From Chloroflexota bacterium (GTDB taxonomy: Bacteria; Chloroflexota; Dehalococcoidia; SHYD01), in assembly GCA_016190485.1 (NCBI GenBank), contig JACPQN010000066.1, positions 8,446-72,445 on the forward strand: a stretch of 64,000 nucleotides of DNA, given 5' to 3'. Position numbers and translations under genes: made by a program. The notes beneath the pieces were generated by a model. That model ran no database searches. It had not been told where the DNA came from and worked only from the letters and a program-made list of their open reading frames with translations. Position 1 is the stretch's first letter. Every line of letters starts with the position of its first letter. Of the stretch, positions 12,473 to 43,179 are shown one piece after another.

Positions 12473-13828
12473 TTGAACATGGTAGCTCGGCTGGCCCAGC
12501 GGATGGGCCTTTTTTATGGGTGGTGCATCGTGGCGGCCGGCGGCATTCTGGCGGCCGTGGCTGGTGGCACCTTCTTCTTCGGCTTCAGCGCTCTCTTCGA
12601 GCCCATCATCCGGGAGTTTGGCTGGAGCCGCGCCGCCACCTCCGTTGCGTACTCGCTGCGGGCGGAGGTCGGCGGGTTGGAGGCGCCCGTCATCGGGGTG
12701 CTGCTGGACCGCTTCGGGCCGCGACGGGTGATGCGGGTGGGCCTGCTCCTCCTGAGCCTGGGCATGTTCATCATCGCGGCCACCCAGAACATCTGGATGT
12801 TCTACGGCGGCTTCATCGTGGCCACCGTGGGGATGGGGGCCTGCGGCGGCCTGGTGGGGATGATGGCCATCACCCGCTGGTTCCGGCGGCTGCGAGGCAG
12901 AGCCCTGGCGCTGATGACGGTGGGCAACGGCCTGGGCGGCCTGATGGTGCCGATCATCGCGCTGCTCATCCTCTCCTTCGACTGGCGCACGGCGGTGGTG
13001 GTAGCTGGGGTGTACATCCTGGCCGCCGGGCTTCCCCTCACCTACGTCATCGTGGATCAGCCGGCCCGCATGGGCCTGGCGCCCGACGGTGATCCGCCAG
13101 CCCAACACCCTGAAGCAGACCCTCCGGATGGTAGTGTGGCGCAAGGGGAGTACCTGATGCCGGGAGCGCCGGCTGAGCAATCTTTCAGCGGCCGGGAGGC
13201 GCTGAAGACTCGCTCCTTCTGGATGCTGGCCCTGGCGCTGGCCTTCATCGGCCTCTCCGGCAGCGCCGTCACCGTGCACCTGGTACCCTTCTTCACGCAC
13301 GTGGGGATGCCCGACCAAGTGGCGGCCCTGGGTATGACAGCCCTGGCCATCATCAGCCTGGTGGGCCGGCTGGGCTTCGGTTTTGCGGCGGACACCTACG
13401 ACAAGCGCTATGTCATGGCCGCAGCCATCGGTATGCAGGCCCTGGGGAGCATCGGGTTGGCGCTGGTGCAGAACGTCTGGTCCGCCGCTCTGGTGCTGGC
13501 CGTCCTGAGCCCGGGCTTCGGCGGGACCGTGCCGGTGCGCCCCGCGCTCCAGGCGGAGTATTTCGGCGTCCGGTCCTTCGGCGCCATCCAGGGGATGCTC
13601 ATGGCGGTGTCCACCTTCGGCGGCGCGGTGGGCCCGGTGCTGGCGGGATGGGTCTTTGACGTGACGGGCGGCTACCAGGTGGCCTGGGTATTCCTGGGCA
13701 CCCTTTCCCTCGGGGCGGTGCCTCTCCTGCTGGCCATGGGCCGTCCCCGGTCTCTCGCCGACGCCGGGGCTGTGGTGCTGTCGGGCCGGTCACCCGGCCT
13801 GCCCGACCGGCACGCGGGCCTGCACTGA
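12473..13828 (+). CDS. MFS transporter
   Basis: 12 predicted TM helices in 6+6 arrangement with a central loop. Confidence 0.85.
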   Translation: MNMVARLAQRMGLFYGWCIVAAGGILAAVAGGTFFFGFSALFEPIIREFGWSRAATSVAYSLRAEVGGLEAPVIGVLLDRFGPRRVMRVGLLLLSLGMFIIAATQNIWMFYGGFIVATVGMGACGGLVGMMAITRWFRRLRGRALALMTVGNGLGGLMVPIIALLILSFDWRTAVVVAGVYILAAGLPLTYVIVDQPARMGLAPDGDPPAQHPEADPPDGSVAQGEYLMPGAPAEQSFSGREALKTRSFWMLALALAFIGLSGSAVTVHLVPFFTHVGMPDQVAALGMTALAIISLVGRLGFGFAADTYDKRYVMAAAIGMQALGSIGLALVQNVWSAALVLAVLSPGFGGTVPVRPALQAEYFGVRSFGAIQGMLMAVSTFGGAVGPVLAGWVFDVTGGYQVAWVFLGTLSLGAVPLLLAMGRPRSLADAGAVVLSGRSPGLPDRHAGLH

Positions 13829-15179: not shown

Positions 15180-17810
15180 CTAGCACTGGCTCCAGCCGCA
15201 CTCCTGGCAGGTCATGCAGCCCTCGGCGTAATAGACGGCGGCCTGGCCGCAGTCGGGGCAGATGGCCCCCAGCGGGCGGGCGGATGGCTTCTCGATGGTG
15301 GCGGCCAGCCCTTCGACAGGCTCAGGACGCGGCTCGGCCAGGGCCTTGTGCTCCGTGGGCGGCGGCGTCTCGACCTCCACGCCCAGGTAGCGCCGCAGGG
15401 CCTTGGCGATGGCGTCGGGGATGGAGCGCACCCTCCCGTTGCCGAAGCCGAAGGTGGCGTAGCCGCCGATCCCCTCGAACTGCTCGATGATCAGGAGCAG
15501 CCGCTCCCGCCGGGGGAGGGGCGCGGAGAGGCGCAGGAGCTGGGAGATGGCCCGGCAGGCCGCCTCGGTCATGGCCTGGATGTCCGACCCCGCCTTGCCG
15601 ATGGTGGCGAAGACCTCGAAGGGCTCCCCCGGCGAGACCTCGCTCACCGTGACGTAGAGGTTGCCGAAGGGCGTGGGCTGCTTGATGGTCTTGGAGTCGA
15701 GCACGTCGGGCCGGGGCGCCACGGCCTCCTGCCAGTGGGCCACCGGCGCCGGAGCGGGCTGTGCCGGGGCGGGCGCGTTGCCCGCGGTGAGCACCTGGCC
15801 GGCCCGGCTGGAGTCCCGGTAGATGGTGATGCCCTTGCAGCCCTCCCGATAGGCCAGCATGTAGGCGTTCCACACGTCGTCCACCGTGGCGTGGGCCGGG
15901 AAGTTGATGGTCTTGCTCACCGCGTTGTCGGTGTAGCGCTGGAAGGCCGCCTGCATCCGCACGTGCCACTCCGGGGTGATGTCGTGGGCCGTCACGAAGA
16001 CCCGCTGCGCCTCCTCCGGCACGCCGGCCACGTCGTGGCAGCTCCCGTGGGCCGCCACCTCGTCCATCAGCTCCTCGGAGTAAAAGCCCTGCCCCCGGGC
16101 CGCGGCCTCGAAGAAGGGGTTGACGAAGCGCTCTTTGATGGCCCCCTCCAGGCCGTGGTGCATGAAGCTGAGGGCGAAGACCGGCTCCACGCCGCTGGAG
16201 GCCCCGGCGATGAGGGAGATGGTGCCGGTGGGCGCAATGGTAGTGCGAGTGGAGTTGCGGTACCGGGGGCCGCCGGGGTAGTCGTAGATGCTGCCCTCCC
16301 AGGTGGGGAAGACGCCCCGCTCCCCGGCCAGCTCAACGGAGGCCTCATTGGCTCCCCGGTTGATGAAGTCCATCACCGCCTCGGCCAGGCGCAGCGCCTC
16401 CTCGGAGTCGTAGGGCACGCCCAGTTGCAGCAGCAGGTCGGCCCAGCCCATGACCCCCAGGCCGATCTTGCGGGTGGCCTTGGTCATCACCTCGATCTCG
16501 GGCACCACGTACTTGTTCATGTCGATGACGTTGTCCAGGAAGCGGGTGGCCAGCCGGGTGACGGCCGCCAGGCGCTCCCAGTCCACACGGTCGGCGGGAC
16601 TTTGTCCGGCGCTATTGGAGCGCACCATCTTGGAGAGGTTCAGTGAGCCCAGGTTGCAGGACTCGTAGGGCATCAGGGGCTGCTCGCCGCAGGGGTTGGT
16701 GCTCTCCACGGGCGCGATGTGGGGGCAGGGATGGTCCCGGTTCACCCGGTCAATGAAGACGATGCCGGGGTCGCCGTTCTTCCAGGCGTTCTCCACCATC
16801 TGCTGAAAGACCTCTCGCGCCCGGAACTGCCCGGACACCTGCCCGGTGCGGGGGTTGGTGAGGTCGTAGGTGCGGTCTTCCTCCACCGCTCGCATGAACT
16901 CCTCGGTCACGGTCACGGAGATGTTGAAGTTGGTGACGGAGACCATGTCGGCCTTGCAGGTGATGAACTCCTGGATGTCCGGGTGGGTCACGGAGAGGAT
17001 GCCCATGTTGGCGCCCCGGCGCATGCCGCCCTGCTTGATGGCCTCGGTGGCGGCGTCGAAGACCTTCATGAAGGAGACGGGGCCGCTGGCCACCTGGCCG
17101 GTGGACTGGACGATGTCGTTGGCGGGGCGCAGCCGACCAAAGGCGAAGCCGGTGCCGCCGCCGGTTTTGTGGATGAGGGCCGCGTGCTTCACCGAGTCGA
17201 AGATCTTGTCCAGGGAGTCCTCCACCGGCAGCACGAAGCAGGCGGAGAGCTGCTGCAGCTCCCGGCCCGCGTTGGCCAGGGCGGGCGAGTTGGGAAGGAA
17301 CTCCAGGTTGGCCATGATCTGGTAGAACTCCTCGGCCCAGGCGGCCGCGTCGGCCTGGGGGTTGTAGAGGAGCTCCGCCTGGGCCAGGTTCCAGGCCACC
17401 CGGCGGAACATCTCGTCGGGTGTCTCCACCACCCGGCCGTGGAGGTCCTTTTTCATATAGCGCTTTTCCAGCACCGTCACCGCCTGGGGCGTGAGCCTCG
17501 GTATGCCCCTGAGCCGGGTGGGCGCCCTGGGGATGACAGTGCCTGGCACGCCCGTCGTGGCGGGCACAGGGGCGGCGCGGAAGGCGCGGCCCTCCCGCAG
17601 GGCGCCGATCTCCTCCTCCAGCCGGGCCACGGCCGAAGCGCCGAAGATGCTCAGGCGCGCTGCCACGTCGGCCACTGACCAGGTGGCGGGCGCCGCCGCC
17701 GGAGCGGGATCGCTCTGGGCGACGGGGGCCAGGCCTGCCTGCCGGACAGGCAGGTGGGCTGCTCGCACGGATGTATGTTTCCGGCCGTTGCCGTTAGCGT
17801 TGGTTGTCAA
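15180..17810 (-). CDS. nrdJ: adenosylcobalamin-dependent (class II) ribonucleotide reductase
   Basis: 876 aa, class II RNR catalytic core, C-terminal CxxC...CxxC zinc ribbon. Confidence 0.9.
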   Translation of the reverse strand: MTTNANGNGRKHTSVRAAHLPVRQAGLAPVAQSDPAPAAAPATWSVADVAARLSIFGASAVARLEEEIGALREGRAFRAAPVPATTGVPGTVIPRAPTRLRGIPRLTPQAVTVLEKRYMKKDLHGRVVETPDEMFRRVAWNLAQAELLYNPQADAAAWAEEFYQIMANLEFLPNSPALANAGRELQQLSACFVLPVEDSLDKIFDSVKHAALIHKTGGGTGFAFGRLRPANDIVQSTGQVASGPVSFMKVFDAATEAIKQGGMRRGANMGILSVTHPDIQEFITCKADMVSVTNFNISVTVTEEFMRAVEEDRTYDLTNPRTGQVSGQFRAREVFQQMVENAWKNGDPGIVFIDRVNRDHPCPHIAPVESTNPCGEQPLMPYESCNLGSLNLSKMVRSNSAGQSPADRVDWERLAAVTRLATRFLDNVIDMNKYVVPEIEVMTKATRKIGLGVMGWADLLLQLGVPYDSEEALRLAEAVMDFINRGANEASVELAGERGVFPTWEGSIYDYPGGPRYRNSTRTTIAPTGTISLIAGASSGVEPVFALSFMHHGLEGAIKERFVNPFFEAAARGQGFYSEELMDEVAAHGSCHDVAGVPEEAQRVFVTAHDITPEWHVRMQAAFQRYTDNAVSKTINFPAHATVDDVWNAYMLAYREGCKGITIYRDSSRAGQVLTAGNAPAPAQPAPAPVAHWQEAVAPRPDVLDSKTIKQPTPFGNLYVTVSEVSPGEPFEVFATIGKAGSDIQAMTEAACRAISQLLRLSAPLPRRERLLLIIEQFEGIGGYATFGFGNGRVRSIPDAIAKALRRYLGVEVETPPPTEHKALAEPRPEPVEGLAATIEKPSARPLGAICPDCGQAAVYYAEGCMTCQECGWSQC

Positions 17811-31369: not shown

Positions 31370-32536
31370 GTGGCTTACAGCCCCGTTTACGATGCCCCTC
31401 CGTTCACTGATTTCGCTTCAGTAACGCCGGATACACGCCTAGAAGAGCTGAATCTGAACTGGCGGGAGCAGGACCTTCCAGAGGGATCCCGTACAAAGCA
31501 CGTCCATCGTCTCCATCCCTACCTGGGCAAATTCGTTCCTCAACTAGTCGAAATCTTCCTGAGGAAGTACCAACCAAGGGTTGTGTGTGACCCATTCTGT
31601 GGATCAGGAACGACGCTGGTTGAAGCCAACGCTATGGGCATAGATGCAATTGGGTGTGACATTTCTCCCTTCAATGTCTTACTTACGAAAGTCAAGACTG
31701 CCGAGTACAACATTGCCAAATTGGAAAAAGAAATCAAGGACATTGTTACGAGGATTACTCTTGCCTTGAAGCCAGGGCTTTTTGAAGGTGAGGTCGAAGA
31801 CACTGACAATGCATATTTGCGAAGCTGGTACGCGCAGCGAGCAAGGGTCCAGCTTCTTTTCTTTAAGTCCCTGATTCCACAGTACGAACATCAAGATCTT
31901 CTCAAAGTGATCCTTTCGAGAGCAGCACGGTCGGCTAGGCAAACCACCCATTTCGACTTGGATTTCCCAAAGCGGCCGCAGACAGAGGATTACTATTGCT
32001 ACAAACATGGGAGGACGTGCCAGCCCACGAGCGATGCGCTGGGCTTCTTGACTCGCTATTGCTGGGACACGCTTAGAAGGATACGCGCTTTCTCGGAACT
32101 GCGAACTCGTGCTGCTGTGCTCTATAAGTGTGACGACTCTCGTAACATGGAGTTCCCAGAAGTAGACATGATACTGACCTCCCCGCCGTATGTGGGACTC
32201 ATCGACTACCACGAACAACACCGCTATGCCTACGAGCTGCTTGAAATGCCCATGCAAGAGGAGCAAGAAATTGGCGCCGCAAAAAGAGGTGCCTCGGAAA
32301 CAGCTCAGCGTGCGTATATAGAGAATATAGGCACAGTGTTTCGGAACCTTCGCGAGGGACTGCCTGCAGATGGGGTAGCGGTTATAGTGGTGCATGACCG
32401 TCGCAGGCTCTATGAAGGATTGGCAGAACAACTTGGGTACCGACAAGAACTGGAGTTACGCCGGCATGTAAACCGACGTACAGGCCGGAGAGCGGGAGAT
32501 TTTTACGAAAGCGTGTTGGTGTGGCGGAAGACATAG
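31370..32536 (+). CDS. DNA amino-methyltransferase (N4-C or N6-A; motif I before TRD before motif IV = alpha-like order)
   Basis: motif I VVCDPFCGSGTT, motif IV TSPPY; GC clearly lower than flanks; AGGAGG RBS. Confidence 0.75.
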   Translation: MAYSPVYDAPPFTDFASVTPDTRLEELNLNWREQDLPEGSRTKHVHRLHPYLGKFVPQLVEIFLRKYQPRVVCDPFCGSGTTLVEANAMGIDAIGCDISPFNVLLTKVKTAEYNIAKLEKEIKDIVTRITLALKPGLFEGEVEDTDNAYLRSWYAQRARVQLLFFKSLIPQYEHQDLLKVILSRAARSARQTTHFDLDFPKRPQTEDYYCYKHGRTCQPTSDALGFLTRYCWDTLRRIRAFSELRTRAAVLYKCDDSRNMEFPEVDMILTSPPYVGLIDYHEQHRYAYELLEMPMQEEQEIGAAKRGASETAQRAYIENIGTVFRNLREGLPADGVAVIVVHDRRRLYEGLAEQLGYRQELELRRHVNRRTGRRAGDFYESVLVWRKT

Positions 32537-32663
32537 ACCCTGAGGCGCTCGCAACCAGCGTAGGTCAGTGTTTCAGCGCAGGACCAGACATAGGGAAGCG
32601 AATTGTCGAGGCATTCCAGCAGACCTTTGCCAACCTCTTGCACGCAGAGTGCAAGCAAAGCGG

Positions 32664-33269
32664 ATGCGAGAGATCATTAGGGACAAGAATCCTTATTTAT
32701 ATCGCGCCAGCGGCGTAAACACTTGCCAGGAAATAGTTCAGCGGGCGCTGCAAGACTACATTAGCGCTAGTGTGGAGAATAATTTTGGTGCCTTCTTTGA
32801 GGCGGTTGCTAGGATATTCTCAGGAGGGGTTAAGCCCGTTGGGGGTGGTGAGGTTGACCTGGATGTGCGGAAGGCTGATGTGGCTTTCCTCTATGCGATG
32901 AAGTCGGGATCGAAGGGCTTCAACTCGTCAAGCTACGACAAAGCCAGGCGCGACTTATTATCGGCAGAACGCAGGCTACGTCAGGACAAAGTGCGAACGG
33001 AGAAGCGGATTGCGTTTGCGTATGGCAAGAGACAGGAAACAGATAAAGATGGCATTATCCAGCTGACTAGTAAGGCTTTTTGGGGAGAAGTAAGTGGTGA
33101 TCCACTCTTCTATAAGAAGCTGTTAAATGCCTGCGCGCTGTTATCTCCTTTGTATACTGCTGATCTACAGGCACCCTATGACCGTCTATTGGAAGAAGCT
33201 CATTCGCTGTTTTGTGAAGAAGATGGAATTAACTGGGATAAAGTGCTGAAGTTAGTTTTTGGTGAGTAG
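32664..33269 (+). CDS. candidate Type II restriction endonuclease partner of the methyltransferase (start uncertain: ATG 32568 or 32664, or GTG 32521 in another frame with a frameshift)
   Basis: low-GC ORF immediately downstream of the MTase; GEVDLDV...AFLYAMKSG could be a D...(D/E)xK core; an overlapping frame-1 ORF 32521..32718 also reads protein-like, suggesting a possible frameshift. Confidence 0.35.
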   Translation: MREIIRDKNPYLYRASGVNTCQEIVQRALQDYISASVENNFGAFFEAVARIFSGGVKPVGGGEVDLDVRKADVAFLYAMKSGSKGFNSSSYDKARRDLLSAERRLRQDKVRTEKRIAFAYGKRQETDKDGIIQLTSKAFWGEVSGDPLFYKKLLNACALLSPLYTADLQAPYDRLLEEAHSLFCEEDGINWDKVLKLVFGE

Positions 33270-34169: not shown

Positions 34170-35455
34170 TCCATATCGGGGTGGAGAACTACGGGCGGGT
34201 GGACCCTGCCACGGGCCTCTCCACCCGGCTGGGGGACTTCCTGCGGGCGCTGGACCAGGTGGTGGACTACGCGCTGGCCAACGAGGTGGACCTGGTGCTC
34301 TTCTGCGGCGACGCCTACAAGAGCCGGGATCCGTCCCAGACCCACCAGCGGGAGTTCGCCCGCCGCATCATGCGCCTGACGGGCGGGGGGGTGCCGGCCT
34401 TCCTGCTGGTGGGCAACCACGACCTTCCCTACGCGGCGGGGCGGGCCACGGCGCTGGACATCTACCAGACCCTGGGGGTGCCTGGCGTGACCGTGGGGCG
34501 GGAGCTGGGGACGCAGGTGGTGGAGAGCCGCCGCGGGGAGCGGCTCCAGATCGTGGCGGTGCCGTGGCTCAACCGGAGCTGGCTGCTGGCCCAGGAGGAG
34601 CACAAGAACCTGGCCGCCCGGCCCCTGAACGAGCTGATGGAGGAGAAGCTGCAGCGGGTGCTGCAGGTGGAGTTCTCCCGCCTGGATCCGGAGCTGCCGG
34701 CGGTGCTGGCGGGCCACCTGGCCCATGCCGAGGCGGTGCCGGGGTCGGAGCGCCGGATGACAGTGGGCAGCGACCCGGCGTTCCTCCTGAGCACCCTGAC
34801 GGACCCTGGCGGCCCTTCGACAAGCCCTTCGACAAGCTCAGGACACCGCTCAGGACGCGGCATGGTGGACTACGTGGCCCTGGGGCACATCCACAAGCAG
34901 CAGGCGCACCAGAGCCGGGGGGTGCCTGTGGTCTACGCCGGCAGCCTCCAGCGGGTGGACTTCGGCGAGGAGGAGGACCAGAAGGGCTTCTACGTGGTGG
35001 AGATCGATCCGGCGCGGCCCGCGGGGGAGAGGCTGCGCTCCTACGACTTCGTGCCAGTGGAGGCCCGGGCCTTTGTGACCATCCGGGTGCGGTCTCATAG
35101 TGGGAACCCCACGGAGGCGGCGCTGCGGGCCATCGCGCGGCGGGAGCGAGACATCCGGGACGCCATCGTCCAGGTGCAGGTGGAGCTGGCCGCAGGCCAG
35201 GAGGGCCTGCTGGACGACGCGGCCATCAGGCGCGCGCTGGCTTCAGCGCACTACATCGCAGGGATCAGCCGCGAGGCGCCGGACAGCCCGCGGCGGCGTC
35301 TGGGCGAGGTGAAGGTGGAGGAGCTGGCGCCGCTCCAGGCGCTGGAGCTGTACCTGCGGGCCCGGGAGACGCCGTCGGAGCGGACGCAGGCGCTGCTGGA
35401 GTACGGTCGCCGGCTTATTGAGTCGCCTGAGGCGGCCAGCGAGATGGCGCCCTGA
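34145..35455 (+). CDS. sbcD: exonuclease SbcD (Mre11-type phosphoesterase) carrying an in-frame minisatellite insertion
   Basis: MRILHFADLHIG, GDxYK, GNHD metallophosphoesterase motifs; insertion encodes GGPSTSPSTSSGHRSG at 34811-34857. Confidence 0.85.
   Translation: MRILHFADLHIGVENYGRVDPATGLSTRLGDFLRALDQVVDYALANEVDLVLFCGDAYKSRDPSQTHQREFARRIMRLTGGGVPAFLLVGNHDLPYAAGRATALDIYQTLGVPGVTVGRELGTQVVESRRGERLQIVAVPWLNRSWLLAQEEHKNLAARPLNELMEEKLQRVLQVEFSRLDPELPAVLAGHLAHAEAVPGSERRMTVGSDPAFLLSTLTDPGGPSTSPSTSSGHRSGRGMVDYVALGHIHKQQAHQSRGVPVVYAGSLQRVDFGEEEDQKGFYVVEIDPARPAGERLRSYDFVPVEARAFVTIRVRSHSGNPTEAALRAIARRERDIRDAIVQVQVELAAGQEGLLDDAAIRRALASAHYIAGISREAPDSPRRRLGEVKVEELAPLQALELYLRARETPSERTQALLEYGRRLIESPEAASEMAP
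34811..34857 (+). repeat. minisatellite (cccttcgacaag x2 + ctcaggacaccg units) inserted in frame in sbcD
   Basis: 12-bp units read directly; same units at 37001, 40461, 43512 and in reverse orientation intergenically. Confidence 0.85.
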
Positions 35456-36605: not shown

Positions 36606-37406
36606 ATGGCTATGAAGGATGTCTCGCGGGCGCAGGCCGTGGTCTTCGACCTGGACGGCACCTTGGTGGACACCTATGCCATCAACCTGAAGGCCACGCA
36701 GCACGTCCTGCGGCAGTTCCTGGGGCGCCTGCCGCCGGAGGAGGAGGTGGCGCCCCACTACGGGGCGCCGCTGCGGGAGATCATGGCGCACTTCGCGCCG
36801 GGCCAGGAAGCGGCCATGGTGGCCGAGTTTGAGGCCTACTACCTGGAGCATCAGGAGGCGATGGTGCGGCCCTTTGCGGGCGTCTCCGAGATGCTGCGAG
36901 TGTTGCGGCAACGGGGTTATCCCCTGGCGATCCTCTCCAACAAGCGCAAAGAGCCGGGGCTGCGGGAGCTGCGGGCCTGCGGGCTGGCGGAGCACTTCCG
37001 CCCTTCGACAAGCCCTTCGACAAGCTCAGGACACCGCTCAGGACACCGCTCAGGACAGCGCTCAGGACGCAGCTCGGTGCTGTTCCTGGAGGACCTGCGG
37101 GCGCCCAAGCCGGCGCCGGAGGCGCTGCGGCAGTCCGCGGAGCTGCTGGGGGTAGACGTGCGGCGAGTGCTCTACGTGGGCGATAGCGTCCTGGACGTGC
37201 AGTGCGCCCGGAAGGCCGGCGCCCGGAGCGCGGCCGCGCTGTGGGCCGCCGGGGATGGTTCGGCTGGGCTCACCACAAGTGGTTCGGCTGGGCTCACCAC
37301 AAGCCGGGAGCGAGTGCTGGCCCAGGAGCCGGATCACGTGCTGACGTCGGTGGCGGAGCTGCTGGCGCTGTGCCCGCCACTGATCGGTGATCCGCGGGAG
37401 AGGTGA
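36606..37406 (+). CDS. HAD-superfamily hydrolase (phosphoglycolate-phosphatase-like) with two in-frame repeat insertions
   Basis: motif I FDLDGTLVDT, motif II ILSNK, motif IV GDSVLD; insert PSTSPSTSSGHRSGHRSGQRSG (37001-37070) and tandem 24-mer GSAGLTTS x2 (37256-37303). Confidence 0.75.
   Translation: MAMKDVSRAQAVVFDLDGTLVDTYAINLKATQHVLRQFLGRLPPEEEVAPHYGAPLREIMAHFAPGQEAAMVAEFEAYYLEHQEAMVRPFAGVSEMLRVLRQRGYPLAILSNKRKEPGLRELRACGLAEHFRPSTSPSTSSGHRSGHRSGQRSGRSSVLFLEDLRAPKPAPEALRQSAELLGVDVRRVLYVGDSVLDVQCARKAGARSAAALWAAGDGSAGLTTSGSAGLTTSRERVLAQEPDHVLTSVAELLALCPPLIGDPRER
37001..37070 (+). repeat. minisatellite insertion in HAD gene
   Basis: gcccttcgacaagcccttcgacaag + (ctcaggacaccg)x3-4. Confidence 0.85.
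37256..37303 (+). repeat. perfect 24-bp tandem duplication in HAD gene
   Basis: ggttcggctgggctcaccacaag(t/c) x2. Confidence 0.85.
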
Positions 37407-37445
37407 TGATATTCAGCCTAAGCCCGTCAGAAAGGCGAGCTGGGT

Positions 37446-37497
37446 AGATTTCACCCTCACCCTATCCCTCTCCCCTCGAGCCTCGAGGGCGAGGGAA
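37446..37497. repeat. hairpin repeat family copy 4 (TCACCCTCACCCT-AT-CCCTCTCCC-ctcgagcctcgag-GGCGAGGG-AAC)
   Basis: read directly; loop itself contains the palindrome CTCGAG..CTCGAG. Confidence 0.75.
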
Positions 37498-37735
37498 CCG
37501 CGAGGCGGCGTGCTAGCAACTCCCGCATTTGCCTACCCACCACGAGCACAGGGACGTTCATGGTGGGCTCATAATGCCACCACAAACTCAAGATTCTTAC
37601 GGCGGCGAGCCTAGCGAAAACAATTCCAACGAACTTTTGAAATTCGCCCAATTACGGAGCTAAGTCGATCCATAATGTGACGTGGGGTGATGATATCGGG
37701 ACAGGTGCATACAAAAGCGAACGAGGAGGGGAAAG

Positions 37736-38077
37736 ATGGAACCTCAGGAGTCTGGATTCAATGTTCAGCTTCAGTGGCGACAGAGGTGGCAATCCGGGCT
37801 TGGGCAAGCGGCTGAACAGGGTGAAAAATCGTCGACGCTTGGCATTTGCGGTAGGAAAGAACATCTCCAGTTGCGCTTCTATTCATCAGATTTTGCATCA
37901 GATTTTTCCGCCACCGCCCAGTTTTCTTGGCGACAAGTTATGCAAGCTTTGATTAACAATAACCCTGGCCTCTTTGGAGTTCTTGAAGAGCCACTCCATC
38001 ACGTCTTCGCCGATGCACTGATAGAAATGGGGTTTGAAGTGCCCGGCTTCCCACCGGAAGATGACGACGATTTCTAG
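37736..38077 (+). CDS. hypothetical small protein with acidic C-terminus (EDDDDF)
   Basis: 113 aa ORF in an AT-rich (about 50% GC) island, GGAGG RBS. Confidence 0.3.
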   Translation: MEPQESGFNVQLQWRQRWQSGLGQAAEQGEKSSTLGICGRKEHLQLRFYSSDFASDFSATAQFSWRQVMQALINNNPGLFGVLEEPLHHVFADALIEMGFEVPGFPPEDDDDF

Positions 38078-38186
38078 AAAGACGCGGCAACACCGTAGAA
38101 ATGCTCATAGCGCTTGAGGTCTCTTTTCAAGAAAGGCTCGCTCGAATATCTTTCTTGCAGGCCTCGCGCGGAAAGGGAGAACTACT

Positions 38187-39488
38187 ATGGCGAACATTGA
38201 TGATCACCTGATTCGAAATGTGTTCGACCAATACACTCAGTTGGAAAATCGCCTGACCAACGCCTTGTTTCAGGTCTTTCGCCACGAGCCTGACATAGCT
38301 AGGGAGTTCGTGGTGTGGGCAGGCGGGCCGCCGCACCAACGCGAGCTGCTGCAACTCGCATGCCAGATGACGCCCGCGTCAAATCTAAGTGAACTCGAGA
38401 AAGAGGACTTCCCACGGGCAAGGACCATCCCAGACGGATGGATATTTGATCCCGAAGGCGAGTGGGCTGTAGTGATCGAAAACAAGGTGACTGCAACGCT
38501 AGAGCGCAATCAGATAGAGGGTCACATAACGACAGCGAGGGCTCTCGGATTCAGGGCTATCTTTCCTGTAGTCCTCACCGCGGATCGGGAGGAACCCCCA
38601 GATTTGCGCCAGTGGGCGCCCGCCGGAGTCACTGTGCGGTGGCGGCCGTGGAGAGAGCTATACGTGGAGCTGAAGCCGAAGGATTCGAGCTGGTGGGTTA
38701 AAGAGTTCCTCGGCTACATGGAGGAATTGGAGTTCAGATTTCACGAAGGAGGCAATTCGGAAGTGGAGCTGACAGGCTTTTCTGGGATCCCCTTCGACAA
38801 GGAACACGGGTACAACGCACTCCAGGCGCGTGCCCAATTGCTGGGCCTCATGGCGGCATTGCGGAAACATCCAGGGCTGCTGACGTGCTACCCAAATGTC
38901 CAGCCAGAAGGAAAAAAGACACCGACGTCGGGCGCCATGTGGGACACGATAAAATTCTCCCCTGAGGTCCGCACAACAGCGCCTCACCTTACCCTCGTCA
39001 TCGACCGCGATGACGTGCGACTTCAAGTGATTTTGCCCAATGCGGACAAAACCAAAGGCTGGCAGCGCCTGGTCAGACGAAAAAGAGAAGCGGTCGAGGA
39101 GATTCTGGAGCTCGTCCATGGGCAGGTCCGGAATCTCAGGGGCAGGCCGAAGTGTTTTCTCGACCTGTATCAGCGTCATTTCCTTTACTTGGGGGCGGAG
39201 GGCGTTATAGACGCCAGATTGGAAGTTGACCTGGACGCCGTCTTGGACAAGCAGGACGCGAAGATAGACGGGAAGGTTAAAACGCGCAGAGAATGGTGGC
39301 CGGCTGTATCTGGTCTCATTGCTGCCCCAAAGACGGGGGCAAATCTTGAGCTTTCCCTGGTGTTAAGGTACCGTTACTCAGACAGTGCCACGACGAGTGT
39401 CTTAAACAGCCCAGACTTTGTCGAGGAGGCCGCCGCGGCCTTCATTGCCCTTCACCCCTGGTATGACTTCCTCACCCAAGAAGAGTAA
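38187..39488 (+). CDS. hypothetical protein with N-terminal PD-(D/E)XK nuclease-like core
   Basis: E(20)...IPDGWIF-x12-AVVIENKV matches the E/PD/ExK restriction-endonuclease-fold arrangement; ~300 aa C-terminal region without recognisable motifs; low GC. Confidence 0.45.
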   Translation: MANIDDHLIRNVFDQYTQLENRLTNALFQVFRHEPDIAREFVVWAGGPPHQRELLQLACQMTPASNLSELEKEDFPRARTIPDGWIFDPEGEWAVVIENKVTATLERNQIEGHITTARALGFRAIFPVVLTADREEPPDLRQWAPAGVTVRWRPWRELYVELKPKDSSWWVKEFLGYMEELEFRFHEGGNSEVELTGFSGIPFDKEHGYNALQARAQLLGLMAALRKHPGLLTCYPNVQPEGKKTPTSGAMWDTIKFSPEVRTTAPHLTLVIDRDDVRLQVILPNADKTKGWQRLVRRKREAVEEILELVHGQVRNLRGRPKCFLDLYQRHFLYLGAEGVIDARLEVDLDAVLDKQDAKIDGKVKTRREWWPAVSGLIAAPKTGANLELSLVLRYRYSDSATTSVLNSPDFVEEAAAAFIALHPWYDFLTQEE

Positions 39489-39580
39489 ATCGAGCAAAGG
39501 GGCCTTGACTAGCCGAATTGCGTGGCCTTCTGCTGCATTTGCACATTTGTGTGACCAAGCCATTTTCCTGGAGGAGTAGT

Positions 39581-41275
39581 ATGAAGATCACCTGCTACGG
39601 GGGGGTGGGGCAGATCGGCGGCAACAAGGTGCTGCTGGAGGACGGCCTTACTCGCCTCTTTTTCGATTTCGGCATCCCCTTCGGCGACCGGGCACGTTTC
39701 TTCGAAGAGTACCTGAACCCGCGCCCCGGCGCGGGGCTGCTGGACGTGATGGAGATGGGGCTGCTGCCGCCCCTGCGCGGCATCTACCGCAGCGACCTGG
39801 TGCCGGCCGGCCGGTTCTGGGAGCGGGTGGAGCGGTCGCAACACCTGAGGCCCCACCTGCGAGACCTGGAGCGCCTGGACGGGGTGCTGGTCTCCCATGC
39901 CCACGTGGACCACAACGGGTATCTCTCCTTTCTTGATCCCGGAATCCCCATCTACTCCTCGGCCATGACGGGGTTCATCGCCAAGGCCATGCAGGACAGC
40001 GGACAGACGGACTTCGAGCGGGAGTCGGTGTACGCCGTGCCCCGGAAGGAGAGCGGCGGCGTGCTCACTACGGTGACCTCCAGCAGGTCGAATCCCGCGC
40101 CAGCGCTGCAGCGGCCCTACTACTTCCCCGACCTGGCCGATCTCAGCGCCGAGGCCCTGGACTTCTGGCGTCAGACGCCCGCGGCCCGTCCCATGGATGC
40201 CGTGCTCCCCCGACAGGCGGAGGGCATCGGCGAGCTGCCGGTGCGCTTCTTTCCCGTGGACCACTCCATCTTCGGCAGCAGCGCCTGCGCGGTGGAGACC
40301 TCCGCCGGCTGGGTGGTGTACACCGGCGACCTGCGCTTCCAGGGTGGGACGGCGGCACTGACTCGGGACTTCATCCGGGAGGCGGCCCGGCTCCGCCCGC
40401 GGGTGCTCATCTGCGAAGGGACACGCCTGTCGCCGGAGGGGAACGCCGAGGCGCTCTTCGGCCCTTCGGCAAGCTCAGGACACCGCAGGCTCAGGACGGC
40501 GCCCTTCGGCAGGCTCAGGACGGCGCCGGTGACGGAGGAGCAGGTGCGGGCCAACGCGCTGCGGGCCATCGGGGGCGCCAGCGGCCTGGTGGTGGCCGAC
40601 TTCGGGCCCCGCAACATCGAGCGGCTGCGGGCCTTCCTGGAGATCGCCCGGGAGACCGGGCGGCAGCTCGTGGTGCTGGACAAGGACGCCTACCTGCTGG
40701 GCGCGATGCGCCTGGTGGACTCCGGTGTGCCGGGGGTGGAGGAGGCGCCCAACCTGCTGGTGTACCAGGACCTGCGCGCCACCCTGGCCCTGTGGCAGCG
40801 GGACCTGCGCGACCGGCTGGCCAGCAGGATCGTTGGCCCCAGCCAGGTGCAGGCGCACCTGGGGGAGTTCATCCTCTGCTTCAGCTTCTGGGACATCAAG
40901 AACCTCATTGACATCGATCCGGGGGAGGGCCTCTACCTCTACTCCTCCAGCGAGGCCTATAGCGAGGAGCAGGAGCTGGACCTGTGGCGGCTGCGCAACT
41001 GGCTGCAGCACTTCGGCCTGACGCCCCGGGGTCTTCCCCAGGAGAGCACCGACGAGCGGGGCAGGAAGGTCTACAGGACGCCCCCCGGCGAGGAGGGCTA
41101 CCACGCGTCGGGCCACGCCACGGGCGACGAGATCCTGGCCATGGTGCGGGAGATCAACCCAAAAACGGTGGTGCCGGTGCACACGGAGCACCCGGAGCTG
41201 TTCGTGGAGGGACTGAAGGGGTCCGGAATCGAGGTGCGGTTGCCGGCGTACGGCGAGGCGCTGGAGTTCGGGTAG
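39581..41275 (+). CDS. MBL-fold beta-CASP nuclease (RNase J / Artemis-type family) with in-frame repeat insertion
   Basis: SHAHVDHNG (HxHxDH), ...ASGHA and PVHTEHPE (beta-CASP motifs B/C), N-terminus ITCYGGVGQIGGN like RNase J; insert GPSASSGHRRLRTAPFGRLRTAP at 40461-40523; GGAGGAG RBS. Confidence 0.7.
   Translation: MKITCYGGVGQIGGNKVLLEDGLTRLFFDFGIPFGDRARFFEEYLNPRPGAGLLDVMEMGLLPPLRGIYRSDLVPAGRFWERVERSQHLRPHLRDLERLDGVLVSHAHVDHNGYLSFLDPGIPIYSSAMTGFIAKAMQDSGQTDFERESVYAVPRKESGGVLTTVTSSRSNPAPALQRPYYFPDLADLSAEALDFWRQTPAARPMDAVLPRQAEGIGELPVRFFPVDHSIFGSSACAVETSAGWVVYTGDLRFQGGTAALTRDFIREAARLRPRVLICEGTRLSPEGNAEALFGPSASSGHRRLRTAPFGRLRTAPVTEEQVRANALRAIGGASGLVVADFGPRNIERLRAFLEIARETGRQLVVLDKDAYLLGAMRLVDSGVPGVEEAPNLLVYQDLRATLALWQRDLRDRLASRIVGPSQVQAHLGEFILCFSFWDIKNLIDIDPGEGLYLYSSSEAYSEEQELDLWRLRNWLQHFGLTPRGLPQESTDERGRKVYRTPPGEEGYHASGHATGDEILAMVREINPKTVVPVHTEHPELFVEGLKGSGIEVRLPAYGEALEFG
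40461..40523 (+). repeat. minisatellite insertion in beta-CASP gene (variant units cccttcggcaag / ctcaggacggcg)
   Basis: read directly. Confidence 0.8.
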
Positions 41276-41285
41276 GCAGACTTGC

Positions 41286-43179
41286 GATGTTGCTCTCAGA
41301 AGTCGAACTTGAAAATTTCAAGGGTGTATTCACGAGACAGCGCATTGGCGGGTTGAGACGAGTCAATACGCTCATCGGCCGGAACAATGGTGGCAAGACA
41401 TCTTTGTTGGAAGCCTTGTGGGCTGTCCGAGACTCTCTGGTTGGTGGGCAAGTGGCAGAAGATATGACGACGTTGTTGCCATTTCGTGAGGCTGATAGGG
41501 TGATGAGAATAAGGCTGACATTTGAACTCGAGCAGGAAGAATACCAGCAACTACGCGACCACTTGGAAGTCGATCTCCAGCCTAATATCACTACGATCCC
41601 TGCGGCCTGCACCTGGGAATTTGTTTGGGAGCCAAGCCTGGGCACTGGAAACAGGCTACTTCCAACTTCATGTACATTACGGCTGAATGACCGAAACTTG
41701 ACGGTTTGGGTCGCAGATAGTGCGGGTGATTTGAGGGCTGCGCGCTGGGATGAGGCGCGATCGTTCTACGTCAGTAGAAGGCAGGGACTGGTGCTTCAGC
41801 TTCACAGCATCGGGAGCGTCCAATCGCGTCTACGAGTACAAGGTCCCAATGATGCAGCGCAGTTCGGGATGAATCTTGCGCTTGGCTTTGCCCAAAAGTT
41901 GAGGTTTCGCAGAACAGTCCGGGTGGCCGACGATCGGTCGCCAGCGTCACAGAACAGCGAGCTAGATGAGCAAAGCAAGAACATCTCTCAAGTGCTTCTC
42001 ACGCTGAAAAACAACGAAGCGCAGGTTTTCGAGAGGATCGAGAACACTCTGTGCAGAATTCTGCCTGAAGTACGGGGACTTAGTACGCCCTTAGAGGGTA
42101 CTGAAACGGCCCTAAAGCCAGCCCTCGAAGCTAGCAGACTTGAGAAGCATGCCTTTTACCTGTCTGAAATGGGTTTCGGCACACAGCAGGTACTTGCTCT
42201 CCTGACTACAATCTTTTGCTCTCCCAGTGGAAGCCTAGTCTTGATCGAGGAACCCGAGATATGTCTTCATGCGGATGCCCAAAGAAGTCTCGCAAGTTTT
42301 TTGGTGGAGTACTCAAAGAAAACCAACACGCAATTTATAATGACTACTCATAGCCCCATATTCGCTCCGCAAGGAAGCGAAGGGGCGACTTACCTTGTTA
42401 AGTGGGACCAAGAGAATGGGACTACTTATTCCCGCGTTCGCGAGGGAGAAGCATCGATAATCAAAAGAGAGTTGGGATGGCGAAACGCGGATCTTTTCAT
42501 GAAAGACGGGGTTGTCTTTTGGGAGGGGGAGAGTGAGGATGCTGCAATGCCTATCCTTATTGATGCACTCGGTTATGGAGAAAGGATGCCCGCCATCGCT
42601 TCCATCAGTTTGCGTGGCAGTGTAGCGGATAGGCTGAGAGTGCTACGTGAGTTCCTTCGCTATCTTCAGGGTTCAGACCTGAAACCCTTTGTTTTCTCTG
42701 ACGACGACGAGCACGTGGCGACAACTATTCAGAACTTAATCGCTGAAGGTCTTCTGCCGCAATTGAACTACCACATTTGGGGAAGGAGTCCTGGAAATCT
42801 TTCTGACGTATTGTCAGGGTTGGAATTTGAGGATAATTTCCAGGTTTCGCAACTTATTGAAGCTGCCAACGCCCAGGCAGCGGAATCGGGTCAAGCTGAG
42901 AGACTAACTACTGACGGATTCAGGAAAAGTCGACAGACCATTAAGACAAAGAAAAAGACAAGCAAAGCACTCAACGACTATTTTCACAATAAAGTTGGTC
43001 GAGGGTTGGATAAACCCACGCTGAATAAAGCGTTAGCTCTTATGGTCGCTCGTGAGCTTCGAAATGAAATGCCGAGGTCTGTTCAAACATATGAATTCAA
43101 GGGGGCGATAAAAGATCTGTTCGATGTCCTGTATCCCGTTCGTAAAGGAGAGGCCGAGCAACCCGAGGACCAGATGTAG
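41286..43179 (+). CDS. OLD-family ATP-dependent nuclease (ABC ATPase + TOPRIM), class 1 / orphan GajA-like
   Basis: Walker A GRNNGGKTSLLEAL, Walker B LVLIEEPEICLH, H-loop FIMTTHSP, TOPRIM-like VVFWEGESED and DxD FVFSDDDEH; GC about 50% versus about 68% in flanks. Confidence 0.65.

Follow-up and report, generated by a model that had tools for sequence, protein, structure and literature searches.

Type IV restriction enzymes such as Mrr and the PvuRts1I-type enzymes function as stand-alone proteins without a cognate methyltransferase. In Shedu (SduA) and similar systems, found in defense islands, one protein combines a PD-(D/E)XK effector with a variable or sensing domain. For the protein considered here, the closest curated model is PDDEXK_4 (PF14281) from Pfam; another close system is PDC-S26 from PADLOC, which is itself a computational candidate. 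In this report, we describe the computational analysis of a 64,000-nucleotide segment (the window) of contig JACPQN010000066.1 from a Chloroflexota bacterium, which contains an open reading frame (ORF) for a protein of 433 amino acids (aa). The 433-aa protein is a member of the PD-(D/E)XK superfamily that belongs to no curated family, and it is encoded by a stand-alone accessory gene that travels singly. We assign a probability of about 0.5 to the proposal, drawn from the genomic context, that it is a horizontally acquired, stand-alone endonuclease of the defense type whose C-terminal domain would provide the recognition of a target or trigger.

A first-pass annotation of the window had predicted the 433-aa ORF at 38187..39488 (+) and a 113-aa ORF, ending in PPEDDDDF, at 37736..38077 (+). 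Both ORFs are present, and each is preceded by a ribosome-binding site (GGAGG/GGGAG) at a distance of 7–9 nt (GGAGG, 8 nt before the 113-aa ORF). The principal features are listed below.

37736..38077, + strand: small acidic ORF, 113 aa, C-terminus PPEDDDDF; pI 4.45; lineage-specific
38187..38747, + strand: N-terminal PD-(D/E)XK nuclease domain, aa 1–187 (invariant residues, AlphaFold2 model, Foldseek)
38244 (E20), 38433 (P82-D83), 38478 (E98), 38484 (K100), 38511/38523 (Q109/H113), + strand: starts of the catalytic codons
38769..39488 including the stop codon, + strand: C-terminal conserved domain, aa 195–433, a six-stranded sheet plus helices (conservation, model)

Comparison with Known Systems

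A word-indexed search with the 433-aa protein identified 37 homologs. The nearest curated Pfam family, PDDEXK_4, has the same E...PD...ExK motif and core fold as the 433-aa protein. The match to PDDEXK_4 is weak and is limited to the ExK strand and the following helix (aa 86–121), and it was obtained for 15 of the 37 members with a best E-value of 0.0033. The 433-aa protein itself scored 16 bits (E = 0.012) against a gathering cutoff of 22.3; with scores of 16 bits or less, it is not a member of PDDEXK_4. It further differs from PDDEXK_4 by a family-specific N-terminal motif, R-N-[VI]-F-D-Q-Y...E-N, and by the Q109/H113 pair.

PDC-S26 is likewise a single-gene candidate and is of similar size (models of 400–415 positions versus 433 aa), with a similarly placed nuclease core at profile positions ~110–177. 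The match, however, is confined to ~50 residues of the nuclease core (11–13 bits, E = 0.006–0.04), does not extend into the C-terminal part, and was found for 5 of the 37 members (E ~0.006–0.009). These sub-threshold matches to PDDEXK_4 and PDC-S26 are the only ones obtained, in agreement with the first-pass annotation, which could not assign the protein to a named system.

The 433-aa protein resembles the type IV enzymes in standing alone without a cognate methyltransferase, in having a PD-(D/E)XK cleavage domain with a second domain that possibly gives specificity, and in sharing islands with Mrr. Unlike these enzymes, the C-terminal domain has no winged-helix, SRA, EVE, or YTH reader, and the mREase_IV models of PADLOC gave no match. 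The likeness to Shedu lies in the one-protein design, but the nuclease is N-terminal in the 433-aa protein (the opposite order), and there was no PADLOC match to SduA or to any other named model.

The N-Terminal Nuclease Domain

The database copy of the 433-aa protein, from a metagenome-assembled genome, is annotated as "hypothetical protein HYY02_06520 [Chloroflexi bacterium]". An exhaustive HMMER scan (E ≤ 1e-3) gave 404 clusters at 50% identity. The family members are nearly all 400–450 aa in length and align end to end, with a fixed architecture. No precomputed Pfam domain was found for any family member, and neither Pfam nor PADLOC contains the family; searches of NCBIfam, PHROGs, and PDB sequences with the 433-aa protein also gave no match. 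One member has been named "PD-(D/E)XK nuclease family protein" by NCBI.

The motifs on which the first-pass annotation based a nuclease core are found in the translation as QLENRL (aa 18–23), IPDGWIF (aa 81–87), and AVVIENKV (aa 94–101). The 37-sequence alignment has invariant residues F41, Q60, P63, P82, D83, E98, K100, Q109, H113, W155, and Y159 in the N-terminal half and G200, W252, H267, P284, R330, D342, D348, and L349 in the C-terminal half. When 253 distinct full-length members were compared, P82, D83, and E98 were kept in all 253, and K100, Q109, and H113 in 252. E20 and N21 are found in every one of the 253 members whose N-terminus is present. The invariance of E20, D83, E98, and K100 marks an active enzyme, not a degenerate scaffold. 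The closest relative (P0002, located on contig L085, which has the same sequence as L098) has a nuclease that is 75% identical. Relative to this protein the whole nuclease gene is under purifying selection (omega, the ratio of nonsynonymous to synonymous substitution rates, of 0.09–0.29), with values of 0.19 for the N-terminal domain and 0.24 for the C-terminal domain.

The full-length AlphaFold2 model, built from the family alignment, has a predicted local distance difference test (pLDDT) score of 86 and a predicted template modeling (pTM) score of 0.82. The elements of the model follow the canonical alpha-beta-beta-beta-alpha-beta order (helix 19–33, strands 56–59, 84–87, and 93–100, helix 107–119, and strand 124–131). 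The first long helix carries E20, and strand 93–100 carries E98 and K100; D83 is positioned at strand 84–87, and Q109 and H113 are on helix 107–119. A Foldseek comparison of the model with viral protein models returned a phage "PD-(D/E)XK nuclease superfamily protein" (E = 4.5e-4, TMt 0.55); ranked below it were many proteins of the VRR-NUC, Mrr-like, restriction-endonuclease, and Cas4 types. The matches in the PDB were FAN1, McrC, SdaI, Hjc, and Rpb5, all with weak E-values.

The nuclease core proposed in the first-pass annotation is thus borne out by the invariant catalytic residues, the canonical order of elements in a confident model, and the nuclease matches from Foldseek. The catalytic constellation, conserved in the 37 and then in the 253 homologs, and the core fold together place the 433-aa protein in the PD-(D/E)XK superfamily. 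The Q109-xxx-H113 pair, whose residues are separated by one helical turn on the helix after ExK, is reminiscent of the QxxxY motif found in RecB/Cas4-like nucleases, a resemblance that we regard as a lead only.

The C-Terminal Domain

The first-pass annotation had recognized nothing in the ~300 residues beyond the nuclease core. This was correct in that there is no Pfam or PDB sequence match, but the region is not featureless and contains a second strictly conserved domain of ~240 aa. No Pfam match was obtained for 15 isolated C-terminal domains even at E ≤ 10, and a profile search of PDB sequences with this domain gave no match. A profile search for the domain itself returned 274 matches, and 120 of the 120 listed share the nuclease plus C-terminal domain architecture. 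Judged from these sequences, the nuclease domain is permanently fused to the C-terminal domain among the matches listed.

The nearly invariant residues of the C-terminal domain are D348 together with G200, W252, H267, P284, Q329, R330, D342, W370, and N386, the latter nine being conserved in at least 96% of the 253 members. The domain is predicted with confidence both alone (pLDDT 85, pTM 0.86) and within the full-length model, where H267, Q329, R330, D342, D348, and N386 are located on the strands of one sheet. The model suggests that these polar residues form a binding surface or a second catalytic surface.

The best structures for the C-terminal domain, and the only ones that can be superposed globally, are those of YktB/DUF1054 (UPF0637; PDB 2a8e and 3mqz), with which it has no sequence similarity. 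Foldseek gave TMt values of 0.54 and 0.48 for 2a8e (probability 0.98–1.0) and 0.39–0.40 for 3mqz, and these were the only fold matches with a meaningful TM score. The superposition of YktB/DUF1054 is borderline, with TM scores of 0.35–0.54 over ~210–230 columns and a root-mean-square deviation (rmsd) of 7–11 Å. Matches to Cas7f/Csy3, ARPC2, and others were discounted (TM ~0.2, rmsd ~15 Å). There was no SRA, EVE, YTH, or winged-helix reader fold among the Foldseek matches. Literature searches for DUF1054, YktB, DUF2461, PDC-S26, and PDDEXK_4 found no functional information, and since DUF1054 is without a reported function, the match to the YktB fold yields no mechanism.

The Small Acidic ORF

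The first-pass annotation had considered the two ORFs as a possible toxin/immunity module. Judged by the pattern of changes across codon positions and the in-frame dN/dS ratio, the 113-aa ORF is a genuine gene on which purifying selection acts. Its counterpart in L085 occupies the same position, is also 113 aa in length, and is 90% identical in protein sequence. The 28 nucleotide differences are distributed 6/4/18 over the three codon positions, and the in-frame dN/dS is 0.19, compared with 1.4 and 2.0 in the shifted frames. With the exception of L085/L098, searches of 5.8 billion proteins and of 80 related loci found no homolog, and there was no second metagenome copy and no Pfam or PHROG match.

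The upstream small ORFs of a 42%-identical relative are unrelated to the 113-aa ORF. The same-strand small upstream ORFs of the other loci are mutually dissimilar, except for one pair of related genomes, and across 76 loci there is no conserved upstream partner. The 113-aa ORF is therefore not always encoded together with the nuclease; it is confined to the window and one close relative, and a family-wide toxin/immunity pair is not supported. The 113-aa protein is possibly a local add-on, a regulator or inhibitor in this lineage, outside the core mechanism.

Distribution and Genomic Neighborhoods of the Family

The family is rare and patchy. In a pattern scan of 185,579 species, each represented by a single genome, 155 relatives were detected; they are distributed over the Planctomycetota, Alpha-, Beta-, Gamma-, and Deltaproteobacteria, Acidobacteriota, Chloroflexota, Nitrospinota/Nitrospirota, and others. 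For most loci, the guanine-plus-cytosine (GC) fraction of the family gene is below that of the surroundings; the median difference is −0.039, and 30 of 47 loci have differences below −0.03.

All ORFs from 76 loci were clustered, and there was no conserved neighbor, including no cognate methyltransferase. The suggestion in the first-pass annotation of a stand-alone gene is upheld by this result. An Mrr-type type IV restriction gene is the most common neighbor; of the 76 loci, five have it immediately upstream and a sixth contains it. The upstream Mrr proteins (Mrr_N plus Mrr_cat, ~300–350 aa) are encoded on either strand in L009, L011, L019, L030, and L045, and the sixth is at 12996–13928 in L005. 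Other neighbors within 3.5 kb are DNA methylases, Mrr_cat, ResIII, ParB/RepB, TOTE primase, Cas7, PbeA, and PDC-S02 proteins. At distances beyond 6 kb are SspG, DISARM DrmA/D, IetS, a type I methylase, a retron PRTase, BrxH, DpdE, and SoFic, and type IV restriction endonucleases are also among the neighbors within 10 kb. The association of the family with defense and mobile genes is frequent, not universal, as illustrated by the following contexts.

P0003: ARPP-1, an RNase_H_2/SF1 helicase of 1163 aa, and a resolvase
Bradyrhizobium: edge of a RecT/DUF3799/GcrA/GapR prophage-like block, at two chromosomal sites in two strains
P0019: phage integrase ~1.1 kb downstream
P0026: TumE/HVO_A0114 pair (toxin–antitoxin) upstream
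P0256: Prim-Pol/AAA_25, an Mrr_cat-NA-iREase1 protein, and a resolvase
Viral contigs L091–L093: Mrr_cat_2-ResIII, Fic, serine and tyrosine recombinases, and an OLD nuclease
P0005: solitary, within a sugar-nucleotide operon
P0018: solitary, adjoining AddAB-like genes
P0292: solitary, amid housekeeping genes (fumarase adjoining)

In Bradyrhizobium japonicum (L086/L087, 8001–9251), a prophage-like block with genes for RecT, DUF3799, a DnaA_C-like protein, GcrA, and GapR ends with the family gene and an unannotated gene for 255 aa. The left flanks of the block differ between the two strains, and the gene is thus cargo of a mobile element there.

The Low-GC Islet in the Window

The 113-aa and 433-aa ORFs are wedged between two core genes, for a HAD-like protein and a metallo-beta-lactamase (MBL) protein. 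The GC fraction of the window falls from ~0.70 to 0.49–0.58 between ~37400 and ~39600, and it is 0.544 for the islet (37407–39577) compared with 0.701 and 0.693 for the flanking genes. The first-pass annotation had given ~50% GC for this segment; that value holds for the small ORF and the upstream spacer, but the nuclease gene itself is 56% GC. The claim of a foreign island was supported by the 54% GC of the islet between core genes of 70% GC and by its homology to the islet of L085. The remaining features of the islet and the adjacent genes are as follows.

31370..32536: N6_N4 DNA methylase of a type II restriction-modification (R-M) pair (profile match, E = 3.5e-13)
32568..33269: EcoO109I-family restriction endonuclease of the type II R-M pair (profile match, E = 6.5e-30)
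37407..37735, no strand: left arm of the islet, noncoding spacer from the HAD stop codon to the small ORF, coinciding with the drop in GC
38078..38186, no strand: intergenic spacer of 109 nt between the 113-aa and 433-aa genes
39489..39577, no strand: right junction spacer from the nuclease stop codon to the MBL/beta-CASP gene
39578..41275: MBL/beta-CASP gene, RNase J-like, GC 0.69; remote match to TIGR00649 (55 bits versus a cutoff of 400)
41296..43179: OLD/GajA/AriA-like ATPase, 627 aa, in a third low-GC islet (AAA_21/AAA_15, E ~1e-24 to 1e-25)

The promoter is presumably in the left arm, where no match to the sigma-70 consensus was found; a promoter and terminator scan of the islet gave nothing that exceeded the shuffled expectation. 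No terminator-like site is predicted in the spacer at 38078..38186, which is compatible with cotranscription of both genes, and the 50 nt at ~38108–38157 are missing from L085, so this stretch of the spacer is dispensable. A noncoding RNA or riboswitch in the well-conserved 220–330 nt upstream was considered and rejected for lack of evidence, with two sequences to compare: there was no Rfam match at E ≤ 1 and no thermodynamic signal of RNA structure (z = 0.12). There is no recombinase gene within the islet, and the search for att-like direct repeats or terminal inverted repeats at its ends gave only short matches at the level of chance, for example, 13 nt at 37520/39530. At the left boundary of the islet (37462–37497), there is a GC-rich palindromic element, CCCTCTCCCCTCGAG/CCTCGAGGGCGAGGG, which resembles an intergenic hairpin of the repetitive extragenic palindromic (REP) type; the L098 copy has a CACCCT repeat tract before the palindrome.

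The first-pass annotation had described the locus as nuclease-rich, and the region does carry other defense genes, namely, the EcoO109I-type R-M pair and the OLD/GajA-like ATPase. The R-M pair (31370–33269) is a separate low-GC islet (GC 0.47–0.54). The ATPase matched AriA (E = 2e-25) and GajA (E = 1e-23), with a weak match to the OLD TOPRIM domain (E = 0.14). The islets are separated by core genes at the GC of the host for an SbcD-like protein, an M50 protease, the HAD-like protein, and the RNase J-like MBL protein. The MBL/RNase J-like gene was rejected as a partner in a module: it is a neighbor of the nuclease gene only in the window and L085, its GC (0.69) is host-like, and no homolog is located near other family members.

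Two kinds of repeats were observed in the vicinity. The 3′ part of the HAD-like gene (37256–37303) contains a perfect 24-nt tandem duplication of TGGTTCGGCTGGGCTCACCACAAG that doubles the peptide SAGLTTSG. A 20-nt motif, CCCTTCGACAAGCTCAGGAC, is found in eight copies (0.02 expected) at 15309, 34825, 37013, 40462, 40502, 43526, 43574, and 50971, and the 12-nt tandem units GCCCTTCGACAA and GCTCAGGACACC often adjoin these copies. Those at 34825, 37013, 40462, and 40502 are inside the SbcD-like, HAD, and MBL ORFs and encode in-frame STSPSTSSGHRSG-like stretches. The motif may be an intragenic dispersed repeat.

Closest Relative and Origin of the Islet

The homology between the window and L085 begins within the final codons of the HAD gene, and the stop codons align. 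The islet as a whole is 80–90% identical in nucleotide sequence to that of L085/L098. The identity is 84–92% for the left arm, 84–95% over the spacer and small ORF, ~84% over the initial 700 nt of the nuclease gene, and 60–84% in the rest. An identity of ~85% resumes at the ribosome-binding site and the first ~19 codons of the MBL gene, whereas the MBL proteins are 34% identical overall, and this difference suggests a recombination breakpoint inside the MBL gene. The GC content of L085 is 50–56% throughout, including the MBL gene. The shared HAD|MBL site, the L085-like composition, and the end of the similarity just inside the flanking genes, observed in two genomes, fit the entry of the islet into the 70% GC Chloroflexi genome from a relative of ~54% GC by recombination at this syntenic site. 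The islet appears to have passed between distant relatives among the Chloroflexi at a single hotspot of conserved synteny, HAD|MBL.

The synonymous divergence (dS) from L085 was determined to be 0.25 for the small ORF and 0.76 for the nuclease gene. The spacer and small ORF (37451–38100) are less diverged than 38187–39442, even synonymously; with two sequences compared, this contrast could reflect a mosaic history or an extra constraint. L085 lacks 88 nt that cover the native C-terminus of the nuclease and most of the right spacer. The deletion (L085:1880–1932, corresponding to 39443–39530 of the window) removes the C-terminal helix and the stop codon, and read-through then appends 16 new residues, stopping 1 nt short of the MBL start codon. 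The L085 copy of the nuclease may be impaired.

Proposed Function and Alternatives

The most likely function of this gene would be anti-phage or anti-plasmid action without a partner. The N-terminal domain is predicted to cut DNA in a metal-dependent reaction, and the C-terminal domain, through the patch formed by H267, Q329, R330, D342, D348, and N386, would decide when or what to cut. Since no methyltransferase or other partner is conserved, the discrimination between self and nonself must reside within the 433-aa protein. The C-terminal domain could read a feature of foreign DNA, as in type IV restriction, or it could bind an infection-derived ligand that frees the nuclease, as in abortive infection. 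A more specific and rather tentative version is that the C-terminal domain is a new specificity or sensor module, for a feature of foreign DNA or a small molecule derived from infection, that gates a RecB-like PD-(D/E)XK nuclease and so defines a new single-gene immune family.

Several observations weigh against a role in defense. There is no match to any validated defense family, and from PADLOC only PDC-S26 was obtained (E ~0.006–0.04 over ~50 residues). The C-terminal domain shows no recognizable fold of a DNA reader or ligand sensor, and thus its role is proposed rather than read from its structure; DNA, rather than RNA, is the presumed substrate of the nuclease. Defense genes were found both near (<3.5 kb) and far (>6 kb) from the family gene, so this comparison, made with crude ORF calls (longest ORF, greedy), is not a valid enrichment control and the association is qualitative. 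P0005, P0018, and P0292 are examples of members inserted alone in housekeeping surroundings. No match was obtained by tblastn among 72,556 plasmids and 50,697 phages, viral contigs hold only 4 loci in 2.9 million, and there was no PHROG match for the window proteins.

The single-gene insertions precisely between or inside housekeeping operons, the window included, would also be expected of a selfish or mobile-element gene, either homing-endonuclease-like or an accessory of a prophage or integrative element in exclusion or recombination. The same insertion site in two genomes, with flanks far more diverged than the islet, the integrases, resolvases, and Prim-Pol among the neighbors, and the prophage edge in Bradyrhizobium are consistent with this explanation, although prophage edges are also typical of defense cargo, and this position does not discriminate. 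We consider a selfish function unlikely: the islet has neither flanking direct or inverted repeats nor a recombinase, the family is nearly absent from the phage and plasmid collections, and a protein of ~420 aa with a conserved second domain is unlike the known free-standing homing endonucleases. Less probable still is a two-gene, toxin–antitoxin-like module of a nuclease toxin and a 113-aa antitoxin or inhibitor. The small ORF does evolve as a coding gene (dN/dS of 0.19, 18 of the 28 changes at third positions), is acidic, is encoded on the same strand with a gap of 109 nt to the nuclease gene in which no terminator is predicted, and is kept with the nuclease in one close relative. A nuclease that depends on an antitoxin, however, should not stand alone in most genomes. 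The small ORF has no other homolog in the 5.8 billion proteins or the 80 family loci, no upstream small-ORF family is conserved in the 76 loci, and the upstream ORFs of the 42%-identical relative are unrelated, which makes it at best a lineage-specific accessory.

The remaining two explanations concern the activity of the protein. The conservation of the polar residues of the C-terminal domain nearly equals that of the nuclease motif, and the nearest fold of this domain, YktB/DUF1054, is without a reported function; the PD-(D/E)XK core could on these grounds be a mere binding scaffold, with the true activity in the H/R/D/D/N site of the C-terminal domain. The invariance of the metal-binding and catalytic residues E20, D83, E98, and K100 in 253 sequences makes this very improbable. 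The lowest probability was given to a housekeeping nuclease for DNA repair, recombination, or RNA processing that is a chance neighbor of the SbcD-like and RNase J-like genes. This alternative draws on those genes in the window, on the AddAB-like genes that adjoin one homolog, and on the Q..H helix after ExK, which resembles that of RecB-like repair nucleases. A housekeeping gene is difficult to reconcile with the rare and patchy distribution (155 of 185,579 species genomes), the foreign composition of the islet between flanking core genes at the host GC, the lack of conserved synteny, and the movement of the gene with mobile elements.

Conclusions

Stand-alone PD-(D/E)XK defense candidates are common and no known principle is broken by the 433-aa protein, so the value of this finding is incremental until a phenotype is available. 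In the window, small defense islets (the R-M pair, the 433-aa gene, and the OLD-like ATPase) are interleaved singly between the core genes of a high-GC Chloroflexi genome. The strictly conserved second site of the 433-aa protein provides clear targets for mutation. If the protein is indeed a defense nuclease, it would represent a compact system of ~420 aa, encoded by one gene and distributed over many phyla, whose combination of domains is unprecedented. It would also provide a handle on, and the first functional context for, the orphan fold of the YktB/DUF1054 type.

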